Shown: positions 1,421 to 61,208 of the stretch, in pieces
Position numbering within the stretch: the first letter of the stretch is position 1
Layout of the letters: each line of letters opens with the position of its first letter
From: Stegostoma tigrinum
Lineage: Eukaryota
NCBI RefSeq assembly: GCF_030684315.1
Contig: NC_081391.1
Coordinates: 19,986,629 to 20,050,628 of the forward strand
Length of the DNA stretch: 64,000 nucleotides
Direction: 5' to 3'
The notes under the pieces: model-generated
Databases searched by the model: none
Seen by the model: the letters and a program-made list of their open reading frames with translations, nothing else
What the model was told of the DNA's origin: nothing
Translations under genes and position numbers: made by a program

Positions 1421-2129
1421 TACAAGTGGATTCCTGCTTTGAGGAACAGTCACTGGACCTAAAGAGCCTACTCTACTGCTTTCACTTCACACAAGTCCTG
1501 CCAGACCTCTCGGGTTTTTCGAAATACTGTTTATTTTCATAAATTAGACAAACGCCGTTTGTGAAAGCATATTTATTTCCAGCAGATGAAGAAGCTGAGA
1601 ATTAGCAACAATTCATTCATACAAGTTGTCCATTTCAGGCATGAAATGGACAAAACCCACTGGGCTTAGGGTGAGCCTGTCAAACAGGTACTCTCCCATG
1701 CCATTGTCAGGGGCTCCCAGTCTCTTCAGGTTGGTGATGTGATCTCCCAGCTTCTTGATCATCTTCACTTGCTCATCCAAGTAGTGCCTCTCCAGGAAGT
1801 CACACAGCTGGAGAAAGGAAAAAGTATTTAACTTAATGAGCATTAGAGGGTTTGGGTTTCAATGCCCAGTGTCTTTGGACTACATACAGAAGTGTAGCAG
1901 CTGAGGTTGAACCGTCTTTTAAATAAAATTCCTGCTTTCAAATACTGAGGTGACCCAAATTTCATCTTGCAGTTGCCGGAGAGGCTTGTACATTGAGCTA
2001 AGGAACATACTGGTTAAGTAGACAAAATTATTGGCAGCTTTATCAGTTCACCACAAAAATAAGTCTGTATGTCTCCAAATGAAGGTATATTTTGGATCCC
2101 TTAGGCCATTTAATAAGTTCCCAGATAGA

Positions 2130-2960
2130 CCATAAGACATATTTGCAGAAGTTAGGCCATTTAGCCCAGAATCTGTTCTACCATTCAATGATGGCTTATA
2201 TGTTTCTCAACCCCATTCTTGTGCTTTCTCCATTCCCTTTTGACAATCAAGAATCTTTCTGTCTTAAAGATGGAGAATGACCTAACCTCCACAGCCTTCT
2301 ATGGCAATGATTTCCATCGATTCCCATTCTGGTTGAACAAGTTTGTCCTTTTCTGTTCTATCTCTAAATCTGTGTCCTCATCTTCTAGCCTCTCCTGCCA
2401 ATGGAAGCATCTTCCCCATGCCCACTGTGCCCAGGCTGCTCAGTATTTGGACTGTTTCAGTTGGATCCCTTTCATCCTTCTAAACTCCATTGAGTATACA
2501 CCCAGCGTCCTCAAACATTCCGTCACATTTCTGGGATCATTCTCATGAAGGTCCCCTGGACCAGATCCAGGGCCAGTCCATCCTACTTGAGGTATCGGGC
2601 CCAAAATTGCTCACAACGTTCCAAATCCAGTCTGACCACAGCTTTAGAAAACCACAGAAGTACATACCTGCTTTTATATCCTCGTTCTCTTGAAATAAAT
2701 GCCAAGATTTTATTTGCTTTCCCAACTGATTCAAGCTGTAAGTCTACCTTTAGAGAATTCTGGACTTCAACTCTCAAGTCCTTTTGCACTCCCGGTTTCT
2801 GCATTTTCTCCCCATTTAGAAAACAGCATGCCTCTAATCTTCCTAGAGGAGTGCATGATCTCATTTTCCCACAACGTATCCCATCTGCCTCCATTTTGCC
2901 CTGTGATTCTCCCCACTCCACCTGGACATTGGCATCCCCTGTGTTCACTTGCCTCACTTT
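2130..2960 (-). mobile_element. CR1/HER1-like LINE 3' fragment
   Basis: ORF 2583-2957 KANKILAFISRERGYKSRYVLLWFSKAVVRLDLERCEQFW matches the CR1 ORF2 C-terminus, also seen less decayed at 35621-36220. Confidence 0.8.
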
Positions 2961-4377
2961 TCTAACACACCTTCATCTCCTGGTCTATCGCGTGCTCCAA
3001 ATCCAGACACTACTGTTGAGGCCTGCGTATAACTCCTATTATGGTTTTTTTAACCTTTGCAATTTCTCAACTACCCAAGGATTCTACATCTGACCCTACG
3101 CTGTTTCTTGCTATTGAAGCAATTTTACTTTTTACGAATAAGGCAACCCTACTCCCTCTGCCCACGTTGATAGGATATACAGCTCCCAGTCCTGATCCCT
3201 TTGCAGCCATGTCTCCATCACATCATACCTGCGAACTGTGATCTGCACCACAAACACATGTACCTTATTTTGTATATTGCATGCATTCTGAAACCAAACC
3301 GATATTGACTGCCCCTCTTCTCATTGCCATTTGTTTATCTAGTGTGGTTGAAGTTTTATTCTTTACCCTTTCCCAATTGTCCTATTGTGTGTTCTGGAAA
3401 CCTTAAGTAACCTCTCCCACGTTCTCCTGTTCCATTTTGTCACACTTTTCCTTACTGTTGGATTCATCCCCACAGGCGTTAACCTGCTGTTTTGTTTCCC
3501 TGTTGACTTCTCTACGCTTTATTCTCCCATCCCACCCCCACTTCCTAGTTTAAAGATGATTCTCTTTAAGATTTTACATTCCTATTTATCCCAATAACTC
3601 AATCCCTTTGCCTAAGAGCCTATCCACCCCTCTGAGAATGAAATGGCACCATCTCCTGGTGAGTTCCAAAATCACAAAACTCTCATGTTTCTCTTGACCT
3701 GAACGGCCATGTCCCAATTAACCAGCTGTCACTTGTGAACTTGATATGTTTAGAATTGGCAATATGCTGTTGTCCATAGTAGCCTAATAGACCATTTTAT
3801 ACCCACTGTTTCTCATTTGTTTGAGACCAGTCATTACATGTTTATATAGTTTTCAGTTGTACAACTGAGAATTGATACCAGTAAGCCAATAATCCATTCA
3901 ATGCCTTCCATCTTACTTAAATTTATACAAGGGACAAATATTAGTGAAGCAGGGAAGAGCTCACATGAGGGTTGATGTGGTAAGAGGTGAGTTTGTGTAG
4001 ATCCAGCAGACTCTGGTTCACATCCTTCTCCATCTGCAGAGCTCTCTGCATTGCCTCCAGACCACTGCCCCACTCATCCTGCTCTAGCTTCTGAAAGCAG
4101 CATAAGGCAGTTCCAACTACTAGTTGCTCATCAGCACTACCGCAGAGCAGACCAAAGGTCACATTAAGGGATGCTGACAACTGTTGCACACAATTGACAC
4201 TGGAGAACGCAGGAACAGGAGGTCAACTCCCTTTTCTCCTGCGTCCATTCTTTCATGGGTGCCACTGTCAGTACTTGTTACTCATTCCCAATTGCCCCTG
4301 ACCAGAGTTTTTCCTCAGCCATTCTGGAGGTCAGTTGAGAGTTAAATTATGTTGCAGTAAGTCTGGAATCATGTGTC

Positions 4378-58435: not shown

Positions 58436-58500
58436 AGCCTCGAGGCAATGAAGGGAACTCTGCAGATAAAGAAGGTGAACCAGAGGCTCCTGGATCTCCT
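58436..58500 (+). pseudogene. Inverted orphan ferritin exon-3 fragment (paralog of 38558-38627)
   Basis: ctcgaggcaatgaagggaactctgcagataaagaaggtgaaccagaggctcctggatctc reads LEAMKGTLQIKKVNQRLLDL. Confidence 0.75.
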
Positions 58501-59432
58501 TCTCTGCAAATGTAGCTTTAATTGCACCAGCTGTCCTCAGCAGTTGATTGCTGGAGCAAGAACAGGGACTATGCCACATTTGTCCCACACGCTACAAGGT
58601 GGGCATTGAGGATAGGACACACTGTTACAGGAGAGAGCAGATTCCTCACACAGTCTCCTACAGTAGAGACTTGTTAGAAAATCCAATTCCTTAGCTTGGG
58701 AAACTAGAACAGTGGTGTATTGCTTGCTCAAAGAAGCATGGAACAAAAGCAACCTGCATGCCAGATGCTATTGCTGTTACAGTCTTAAGGAATATTTTGA
58801 ATGCTTAGATTCTACCAGTAAAGTTAACAGAATATTACTGGCAAAACTGAGGCCTGGCAGTACCTGGGGACAGACTTCAGTTGTGGAGTCGCCAGACTCA
58901 AACATTAACTGGTTTAATCAACACACATCCAGAGTTCCACCTGCACCTATCCCGCCACTCCCCAACCCCAATTTTTATTTTGTATGAACCCAGCTTTTCG
59001 GAAAGTTGGAGTATTGCTAGGGAGAGGGCACCAGTTAAGTGGCTAACAGTTAGACAGAGTGGAGCAATTTTGGTCAAGCTATTCGCGAGAGACTACTCTT
59101 ACAGAATTGTCACAGTGAGGACAAGACAGATAGTGAGCATTGCGAACAAGCCAAAAGCTTAACAGTTGTGATTTCCACAACAATTACTCACTTCAAAAAT
59201 TCTTCTGACTCTGGATTCAGAAACTGAACAAAAATTGCCAGGGCAAGCATCGATTCAATGCAGAGAGCAAAAAGCCGAAGGGATTTAATAATCAGATAAT
59301 AAACAGCCAAATAAATGAAGCAGTCACTCAAAGTCGTCAGATACATGGGCAATGTTTTCATTGACTTTTTTGTGCACTCTGCACTTGCACTAGAACACCA
59401 GTGTACATGAAATGGAGTTGTTGAATCCCCAT

Positions 59433-61208
59433 TCAGCTCAGGCTGAGCCTGTCGAACAGATACTCTCCTTTGCCCTTCTGAGGGGCTCCCAGTCTCTTCA
59501 GGTTGGTGATGTGATCTCCCAGCTTCTTGATCATCTTCACTTGCTCATCCAAGTAGTGCCTCTCCAGGAAGTCGCACAGCTGGAAGACAAGACAAGTTAG
59601 TTGAGTCCATTGAAGACATATGGAAGTGACCCTTAATTCAGATTTAACAAATCACCACCATGTTGAGGGAGAGGGGCACTCTGGTGATGCGTTTGGACTG
59701 TTGTAGATTTAACAGTCTGCAGGAGGCAGTTATGAGATAATTGTATTCCCCCTCCCCCCAGGAGCAGACAAACAGATCACTTTCAGGTTGGAAACATTCA
59801 TCTTTCCTGTAATTTGAAAGTCATCCTGGTAGTTTGTTGCTCTAAAGGCCATCAGCCCTACATGCTGAATTTAGCAGTGAAAGGCCAGGGAGCTTCTTGG
59901 AGAGAAAGTGAGGAACTCACATGAGGGTCTGTGTGGCCAGAGGAGAGTTTGTGCAGATCCAGCAGACTCCGGTTCACATCCTTCTCCATCTGCTGAGCTC
60001 CCTGCATTTCCTCCAGACCATTGCCATGGTCAGCCTTCTGAAGTGGCAGCGTGGGGGTGGATGGTAAGAGACAAGACACATCACTTAAAACGCAAGAAAC
60101 CAGTGAAAAAAGCAACAAGATCTCCATCCCATTAAGAGAGTGTACAACAGCTAAGAGATTATATCCAAAGCATTAAAATGAAATACTGTTCTAGGCTTAA
60201 AGAGGTCTTCATCAGGACAAGATCACATTCCATTAAAACCAACCTTGATGTCCTACAGGAGGACCCAGCACCCACATTCATTCTGGAATGCCATCAGTTT
60301 CTCAGCATGTTCCCATTCCTTCAAGGAGTAGTCCCATGAGAACTCAGCAAAGTGACACAGGCAACATCTTCCCAGTAAAAGTAAAAGGATTGTAAACAGG
60401 GAAGCCCATTGGGGTTTGCTGTTGAAGATCCTTCTCTACTTGAAATGCTTCTTCAGTCAGGCCTGCAGGTTCTGGAAGGGAAATCCTCCCTTGTAAATCA
60501 CAACAAAAACAACACCAGAATATGTGGAGGCTCTTTCCTTGTAAAGCAGGAAGGAAGGGAAACAAGCATCTTCCTACAAGTTGCGGGGGGGGGGCGTGAA
60601 TATTTCATACTTGACTCCAAATATTAAGCATTAAATGACACCTCATCATTCTGAAAGTCCATATGGTTAAGTGAAAATGGCTCAGCTTCAGTGAGGAAAC
60701 CTTCCAACACAGAACAGAGTTCCCCACTCTGAAGTGAACTTACAAAGCTTACTAGTAAAGTATTGACAGCAAATAGACCCAGAGATTGAGAGTGTTCCTC
60801 CCTCTGGGATTGGAGGTCTAGGGTCACATATGTTCTAGAAGTAAGAGATCAGGTCTCTGGGCAAATTGACTTACTCTAACTATTCAATAGAATAAATCCA
60901 ATTACATTGAACAAAAAGAAAAACAAACAGACTTCTCAGGTCATACATCAAGATCAAACCATTGAAAGATTATTCACTTCTCAAGGTCAGGGGAAGGCCA
61001 CAGAAGATTCTAACATGAATTGAATGATGCAGAGAGATCCTACACCCACAATACAAGGAGACCACAGCTTGAAATCTGAAATAAATCCAGAGAACACCAC
61101 AATCACCATGGAGAGATAAACACAGGAAAAAGAAAGCACCAGGTTGATCTGCTTGTTAACAACACCCTCACAGTCCTTGTGGTAGCTCTGATGCACCTGG
61201 GAGGCCAT
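59433..61208 (-). pseudogene. Ferritin pseudogene copy J
   Basis: Exon 1 61107-61208 (E27V). Exon 2 about 60244-60390 with 20-bp inversion, indels and CAG>TAG. Exon 3 59921-60037 (9-bp deletion). Exon 4 59433-59579 intact. TATA mutated. Confidence 0.92.

Follow-up and report, generated by a model that had tools for sequence, protein, structure and literature searches.

A ferritin gene array in the zebra shark Stegostoma tigrinum: segment of a shark-wide cluster with sequence signs of exon-limited gene conversion

How do ten ferritin loci lying side by side on a shark chromosome come to have such similar coding sequences, to which branch of the family do they belong, and what might so many copies be for? 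These questions are raised by a stretch of 64,000 nt from the zebra shark, Stegostoma tigrinum (assembly GCF_030684315.1, contig NC_081391.1, positions 19,986,629 to 20,050,628 of the forward strand; referred to here as the window, with positions counted from its first letter), which an initial annotation, made from the sequence alone, described as an intron-containing ferritin tandem array under birth-and-death evolution. The explanation that we favour, and consider reasonably probable taken as a whole, is that the window is a segment of an ancient shark cluster in which gene conversion limited to exons keeps the coding sequences uniform, and which, as no iron-responsive element (IRE) was found in it, would provide gene dosage, likely for iron storage in oocytes.

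Ten ferritin loci, c1 to c10, were located using blastn with exons from the window and exact gene models. As first described, they lie head-to-tail within 60 kb, all on the minus strand between 1613 and 61208, and the spacing from exon 4 to exon 4 of neighbouring loci is 5.0–7.8 kb. The domain PF00210 was present on all matches listed, and exon 2 alone matched ferritins in PDB with E ~1e-21. Exons 2, 3 and 4 were each matched ten times out of ten on the minus strand and exon 1 only nine times. Hence, the layout of four exons and three introns found in vertebrate cytosolic ferritin genes is present at nine of the loci and not, as originally thought, at all ten, c1 having three exons. The exon lengths are 102, 147, 126 and 147 nt in seven of the ten. 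Six loci (c2, c3, c4, c5, c6 and c8) are intact, in agreement with the original count, each with an open reading frame (ORF) of 522 nt encoding a protein of 173 aa and with GT-AG at all three introns. The introns found in all ten loci set them apart from the mostly intronless retrocopies of mammals, as already noted in the initial annotation, and an origin as processed retrocopies was rejected for this reason. The remaining four loci are broken. In c1, exon 1 is absent, the acceptor and donor sites of exon 2 are lost, and the reading frame runs on to 1613, its stop codon lost; c7 and c10 have in common the loss of the exon-2 acceptor and a 9 nt deletion in exon 3, with frameshifts in both; and c9 has a single TGA at codon 127. 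The loci are as follows, with exons listed from 1 to 4 unless numbered.

c1, 1613–5525, minus strand: pseudogene; exon 2 at 5379–5525, exon 3 at 3965–4090, exon 4 at 1613–1807, no exon 1.
c2, 7102–11340, minus strand: intact; exons 11239–11340, 8510–8656, 7698–7823 and 7102–7248; TATA at -75, AATAAA at +72.
c3, 14338–16712, minus strand: intact; exons 16611–16712, 15753–15899, 14833–14958 and 14338–14484.
c4, 21323–23632, minus strand: intact; exons 23531–23632, 22508–22654, 21889–22014 and 21323–21469.
c5, 26775–29008, minus strand: intact ORF; exons 28907–29008, 27949–28095, 27341–27466 and 26775–26921; degraded TATA, AATACA for AATAAA.
c6, 31749–33883, minus strand: intact; exons 33782–33883, 32735–32881, 32140–32265 and 31749–31895.
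c7, 39518–41276, minus strand: pseudogene; exons 41175–41276, 40327–40465, 40004–40120 and 39518–39662; exon-4 core the same as in functional copies.
c8, 45554–47738, minus strand: intact, chimeric; exons 47637–47738, 46772–46918, 45855–45980 and 45554–45700; AATACA for AATAAA.
c9, 51917–54726, minus strand: TGA at codon 127; exons 54625–54726, 52854–53000, 52220–52345 and 51917–52063; retroelement in intron 1, doubled core promoter.
c10, 59433–61208, minus strand: pseudogene; exons 61107–61208, 60244–60389, 59921–60037 and 59433–59579; degraded TATA, exon-4 core the same as in functional copies.

When exon 2 of c5 was used as query, shark ferritins came out on top, led by those of Stegostoma, Chiloscyllium and Rhincodon. 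Several of the shark relatives fall in 90 % clusters of 54–180 members, which mix species, isoforms and redundant annotations and are not per-species copy numbers, and mostly lie on one contig per species (both among the best 120 of 250 matches). Many paralogues thus occur on one chromosome, ten of them in 60 kb here and further Stegostoma ferritins on the contig of the database model P0040. As P0011 and P0041, which are 96.5 % identical to c5 and c9, are on the same contig as the window, more paralogues must lie beyond it. A phylogeny, as the initial annotation had proposed, was built from 93 named proteins (unnamed, fused and fragmentary matches were excluded and no tetrapod L chain was included). 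The window copies form an orectolobiform clade (support 96/92) inside an elasmobranch clade (99/85) to which a Callorhinchus protein is sister (100/94), and they are excluded from the gnathostome H clade (99/97). A second elasmobranch clade, made up of 176-aa proteins (100/98), is separate from the array clade, and its members share a contig with array members in all four comparable species. For a subset of 36 rows, the approximately unbiased test rejected a grouping with chondrichthyan FTH1 (p-AU 0.037), and on both grounds the window copies were rejected as orthologues of FTH1 (H chain). Positions as sister either to all H chains (p-AU 0.21) or to the 176-aa clade of elasmobranchs (p-AU 0.15) were retained. 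The backbone of the 93-row tree places the array neither with nor apart from the M and L chains of bony vertebrates, and the array may be of H or of M/L ancestry. The paralogues group by shark order, which is compatible with conversion or with fast turnover.

Judged by these trees, the window is a segment of an ancient shark-wide ferritin cluster, the elasmobranch multi-copy clade, so that the lineage-specific expansion suggested initially is a real chondrichthyan tandem expansion but neither recent nor specific to this species. This array is not new, although the initial annotation could not tell whether it had been described. According to the main text of Sahm 2024 (10.1101/2024.09.09.611499), the Greenland shark has 155 FTL and 179 FTH1 copies, syntenic in the white shark; that cluster resembles the one described here in being a large tandem shark ferritin cluster with many full-length copies and two subunit classes on one chromosome. 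Orthology of the two loci is, however, drawn from protein trees and not from flanking genes. No other intact gene, and hence no gene usable for synteny, was seen by eye among the 82 stop-to-stop ORFs of at least 100 aa in the window, the recognisable ones being ferritin exons or retroelement remnants. The main text of Yang 2026 (PNAS, PMC13214024) describes raised FTH1b copy number in sharks generally, with 59 copies on one chromosome in the Greenland shark, and S. tigrinum is among the species analysed (per-species counts in its Fig. 2C); tandem clusters on one small chromosome and some 5'-truncated copies are features in common. The species differs from that of Sahm 2024. Because the window copies fall outside the FTH1 clade, and with the lone teleost fth1b in the 93-row tree nesting in the H clade apart from the array, the labels FTH1 and FTH1b appear doubtful for the shark array.

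The nine loci that retain exon 1 have homologous proximal promoters, marked by CCAAT boxes and a TGATGTCA/TGACATCA-like site. The example from c2 is

11341–11570, minus strand: proximal promoter of c2, with homologues upstream of all nine exon-1 copies.

A TATA-like box lies 71–77 nt before the ATG in seven of the nine, implying predicted leaders of approximately 45 nt, and the TATA boxes of c5 and c10 are degraded. The core promoter of c9 is tandemly duplicated with two TATA boxes (54727–55010). A STAT-like TTCCCAGAA beside the TATA box of c2 was dropped as it is not conserved in other copies. No IRE was detected in the window using Rfam, either at the gathering score or at E up to 10, a pattern scan revealed no CAGWGN stem-loop within 400 nt upstream of any of the nine ATGs, and a relaxed shape scan upstream of the ATGs returned only non-canonical loops. 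The IRE in the 5' untranslated region (UTR) that characterises vertebrate cytosolic ferritin genes therefore appears to be missing from the array copies, given the inferred start sites. The six intact proteins also have no hydrophobic N-terminal stretch (best 9-residue hydropathy ≤0.28). A secreted yolk ferritin of the mollusc type, which carries an N-terminal signal peptide, was rejected on this basis. With neither a signal peptide nor an IRE found, the ferritin encoded is predicted to stay in the cytosol and to escape repression by iron regulatory proteins (IRPs).

The array shares four exons, the ferroxidase residues and E54/E61 with the M ferritins of amphibians and teleosts (the family of bullfrog PDB 1MFR; salmon M1–3, PMC4117605). 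It differs from them in that no IRE was found (in salmon, each of the five mRNAs for H and M bears one according to the same source), in Met141 where frog has Asp, in the length of 173 aa, and in forming a separate chondrichthyan clade.

We propose that the array would supply gene dosage for bulk cytosolic ferritin under transcriptional rather than IRE/IRP control, and that the most likely site would be the ovary or oocytes, where it could serve iron storage and detoxification for very large yolky eggs. High dosage was the purpose, and eggs one of the tissues, suggested in the initial annotation, and both have gained support. The oocyte step is the best reading of an IRE-less cytosolic product taken together with a finding in another species, namely that in Sahm 2024 the cluster of the Greenland shark is expressed specifically in the ovary. 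Ferritin mRNA is abundant in vertebrate ovaries generally (PMC1488847). Several points weigh against this reading. Ovary specificity comes from one Greenland shark passage of Sahm 2024, some FTH1b copies are transcribed in fin and blood in Yang 2026 with ovary unmentioned in its main text, and a dogfish transcriptome names ferritin among liver-unique proteins with the paralogue unstated. As the shark ovary lies within the lymphomyeloid epigonal organ, an ovary signal could come from immune tissue. Start sites were deduced from the TATA boxes, and an upstream non-coding exon could carry an IRE. Finally, the number of active copies may be below six, since the TATA box of c5 is degraded and AATACA replaces AATAAA in the 3' flank common to c5 and c8 (26690–26700 and 45470–45480).

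The fin and blood transcripts and the epigonal tissue would also suit an array that serves somatic tissues as a reserve for stress or immunity (withholding of iron, or control of reactive oxygen species or ferroptosis), like fthl27 of the hadal snailfish. There, a tandem expansion to 14 copies, for which dosage was proposed, reduces reactive oxygen species in cells (PMC10746142), and Yang 2026 ties shark FTH1b to ferroptosis. However, the snailfish array is, in that account, recent, lineage-specific and expressed in most tissues, and is presumably independent of the shark one. As the expression reported in Sahm 2024 is tissue-specific to the ovary and the expansion is common to sharks that differ widely in lifespan and habitat, we regard a somatic reserve as unlikely and retain oocyte iron storage as the preferred role.

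The exons of the copies agree far better than their promoters, UTRs and introns do. Five intron families can be distinguished (c1; c2; c3 and c8; c4, c5, c6 and c9; c7 and c10), and the 34 cross-family intron comparisons score 14–34 (5 of them slightly over the best of 30 shuffles) versus 301–1081 for alignable introns. The promoters differ by 0.25–0.38 in nine, the unlike pairs, of the 12 pairs compared. Synonymous divergence (dS) among intact copies is 0.02–0.14, and fourfold sites differ at 52/829 (0.063) between intron families versus 37/412 (0.090) within them (c9 included), pairwise counts that are not independent. The cleanest case, which is free of any assumption on selection, is that of the pseudogenes c7 and c10: they differ at 37/380 sites in exons 1–3 and at 114/1243 in introns, but at only 3/145 in exon 4 (Fisher P ~0.0015). 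Positions 7–99 of exon 4 (93 nt) are identical in eight of the ten copies, all four broken ones included (run test P 3.5e-5), and for c10 against c3 the Fisher value was 9e-5. As fourfold sites are only about 6 % apart despite unalignable introns and the tract is shared by pseudogenes, these patterns point to short conversion tracts limited to exons, which may keep the coding sequence uniform and overwrite even the exons of pseudogenes. Tandem paralogues are known to undergo mosaic conversion (10.1101/2025.10.29.685298).

Genes would be added, removed and shuffled when copies cross over unequally, with resolution often falling in the conserved exons. The mosaic structure of c8, in which introns 1 and 2 and the promoter are of the c3 type and the 3' flank is of the c5 type, is in line with such exchanges, as is the finding that 14 of 27 ends of long duplication alignments are found no more than 60 nt from an exon edge, a count inflated because conserved exons themselves pull alignment ends to their edges. 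With purifying selection relaxed, single copies would drift until they die. Constraint on the protein, as estimated from the coding sequences, is present but weak (pN/pS of 0.51 when pooled and 0.45 by change counts; 39 nonsynonymous versus 24 synonymous changes; P 0.002 against neutrality).

Pure birth-and-death, with copies independent after duplication and kept alike by strong purifying selection on protein, codon use or mRNA, is improbable as the full account. Births and deaths of copies are real, as the initial annotation held, with four of ten copies dead and block duplications of differing age, and codon bias exists (G+C content at third codon positions, GC3, 0.69). Of the six pairs within intron families, only three have less synonymous than intron divergence, and in the other three the two are compatible, which suits independent copies and is a point against conversion. 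However, pN/pS of 0.45–0.51 indicates weak rather than strong constraint on the protein, fourfold sites depart from the intron genealogy, and in c7 and c10 exons 1–3 have decayed as fast as introns, yet the 93 nt tract equals that of functional copies. Birth-and-death alone is therefore insufficient, given near-identical exons in copies with unalignable introns, and exon-limited concerted evolution has to be added to it.

The six intact proteins all retain E24, Y31, E58, E59, H62, E104 and Q138 (the ferroxidase set, numbered as for salmon), the nucleation residues E54 and E61, and C127, D128 and E131, which we take to be residues of the three-fold channel. E54 and E61 are also found in chondrichthyan H chains and so are not diagnostic of the M/L lineage. 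The closest PDB chains are frog M (278 bits versus ≤258 for H chains). Codon 141 in exon 4 is Met in all intact copies, Asp in frog M and Ala or Ser in other chains. Met141 also occurs in array proteins of Heptranchias, Pristiophorus and Pristis and is a possible array signature adjoining the ferroxidase site.

The initial annotation had suggested mixed subunits for heteropolymers, but with the same ferroxidase and nucleation residues in all six, the intact copies are predicted to be one ferroxidase-competent subunit type, which would supply dosage and not, by themselves, mixing of the H/L kind. That the six copies are instead functionally diversified subunits mixing in 24-mers is very doubtful: pairs do differ at 11–21 nonsynonymous sites, with R, W or Q at position 60 and E or A at position 64, but the residues checked for catalysis, nucleation and the three-fold channel are identical, pN/pS is below 1 with most changes private to a single copy, and a clearly distinct subunit lies outside the window. 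At codon 60 in exon 2 (c2, c4, c8 and c5), CGG has become TGG (Trp) in three intact copies of three intron families and CAG (Gln) in one, reflecting either a CpG hotspot or a converted allele. CpG decay as the chief source of amino acid differences was rejected, as CpG transitions account for 8 of the 39 nonsynonymous changes among intact copies, codon 60 twice.

The distinct subunit belongs to a second multi-copy shark subfamily, with K59 in all eight sequences checked (P0115, P0204, P0205, P0208–P0211 and P0196) and E138 in three of the eight, in carpet sharks. Replacement of Glu by Lys at the residue-59 ligand is a hallmark of L chains. In PDB, this subfamily matches M and H best, and none of its best 60 matches is named as an L chain. 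The trees place it as sister to the type in the window (96/86 in the large tree, 84/72 in the small tree), and its Stegostoma members lie on the contig of the window, outside the window itself. From these sequences, it appears the likelier heteropolymer partner of the window's subunit type. A broader picture, of a chondrichthyan-specific lineage distinct from both FTH1 and FTL that has shed control by the IRE, serves as an oocyte iron store, re-invents the H/L division with active and K59 impaired types, and undergoes exon-limited conversion order by order, is possible rather than probable.

That uncollapsed haplotypes produced the array is hardly credible: it is rich in repeats and longer blocks are repeated, but duplicated blocks of at least 700 nt are only 80–96 % identical and no repeat of at least 300 nt within the window reaches 97 % identity, so that the copies are not allelic duplicates, and the expansion is present in two independent Greenland shark assemblies and in many other sharks. 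The database annotation is less sound. The NCBI Stegostoma model P0040 matches the c1 region letter for letter (5271–6814, minus strand), and because its first exon is the 3' flank of c2, from which it reads through the broken splice sites of c1, it was probably built on a pseudogene. Several ferritin entries of 239–721 aa look like fusions of adjacent copies. With such models and apparent fusions, annotated ferritin copy counts are unreliable. A 176-aa vertebrate-like ferritin labelled Aeromonas veronii (P0233), on an 866 nt contig, is probably host contamination.

The ten copies are organised in duplicated blocks of a higher order. Other features of the window include a large duplicated block, which runs into the right edge, where the duplication continues as originally noted, and two inverted exon-3 fragments.

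56264–64000, no strand assigned: second copy of the 7.8 kb block 36314–44082, 89 % identity, cut by the window edge.
38560–38626, plus strand: inverted exon-3 fragment of 67 nt, 77–85 % identity to exon-3 copies.
58437–58497, plus strand: second inverted exon-3 fragment, copied along with the duplicated block.

The inverted fragments, of 60–67 nt, sit approximately 0.9 kb downstream of the pseudogenes c7 and c10, and a read-through transcript could pair the fragment with exon 3 (arms 81 % complementary). Retroelement remnants with a GIY-YIG-like motif, presumably Penelope-type, occupy 42800–44100, 53029–53836 and 62745–64000, one being inserted in reverse in intron 1 of c9, and remnants of a long interspersed element (LINE) reverse transcriptase are found at 35235–36306. 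In the spacer between c4 and c5 (23667–25441), the start of a c6/c9-type upstream spacer is apparently fused to the end of a c7-type spacer, as though a c7-like pseudogene had been deleted there. The 3' flanks of c1 (659–1293) and c2 (6053–6645) still align at 68 % and are the most ancient sign of duplication to be seen in the window.

In the main texts, 'gene conversion' does not occur in Sahm 2024, nor do 'gene conversion', 'concerted' or 'iron-responsive' in Yang 2026, and ferritin is not mentioned in a 2025 preprint (10.1101/2025.02.19.638963). What is added here is the evidence for exon-limited conversion, the missing IRE and the doubt over the FTH1/FTH1b labels, none of which was found in a literature search that had subscription journals and bioRxiv supplements outside its scope; within that search no report of conversion or of IRE loss in shark ferritins was found. 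If exons are converted, exon-based protein trees and read mapping cannot separate paralogues or their ages, and introns and UTRs are needed. The pseudogene pair c7 and c10 provides a clean natural test of conversion free of selection. Copy counts of the cluster are inflated by dead copies, which here make up four of ten. Published work has tied the cluster to longevity and to ferroptosis. A family that is IRE-less, shark-wide and homogenised by conversion, as that in the zebra shark appears to be, is more readily explained by the provisioning of eggs or by general dosage than by a longevity trait of the Greenland shark.

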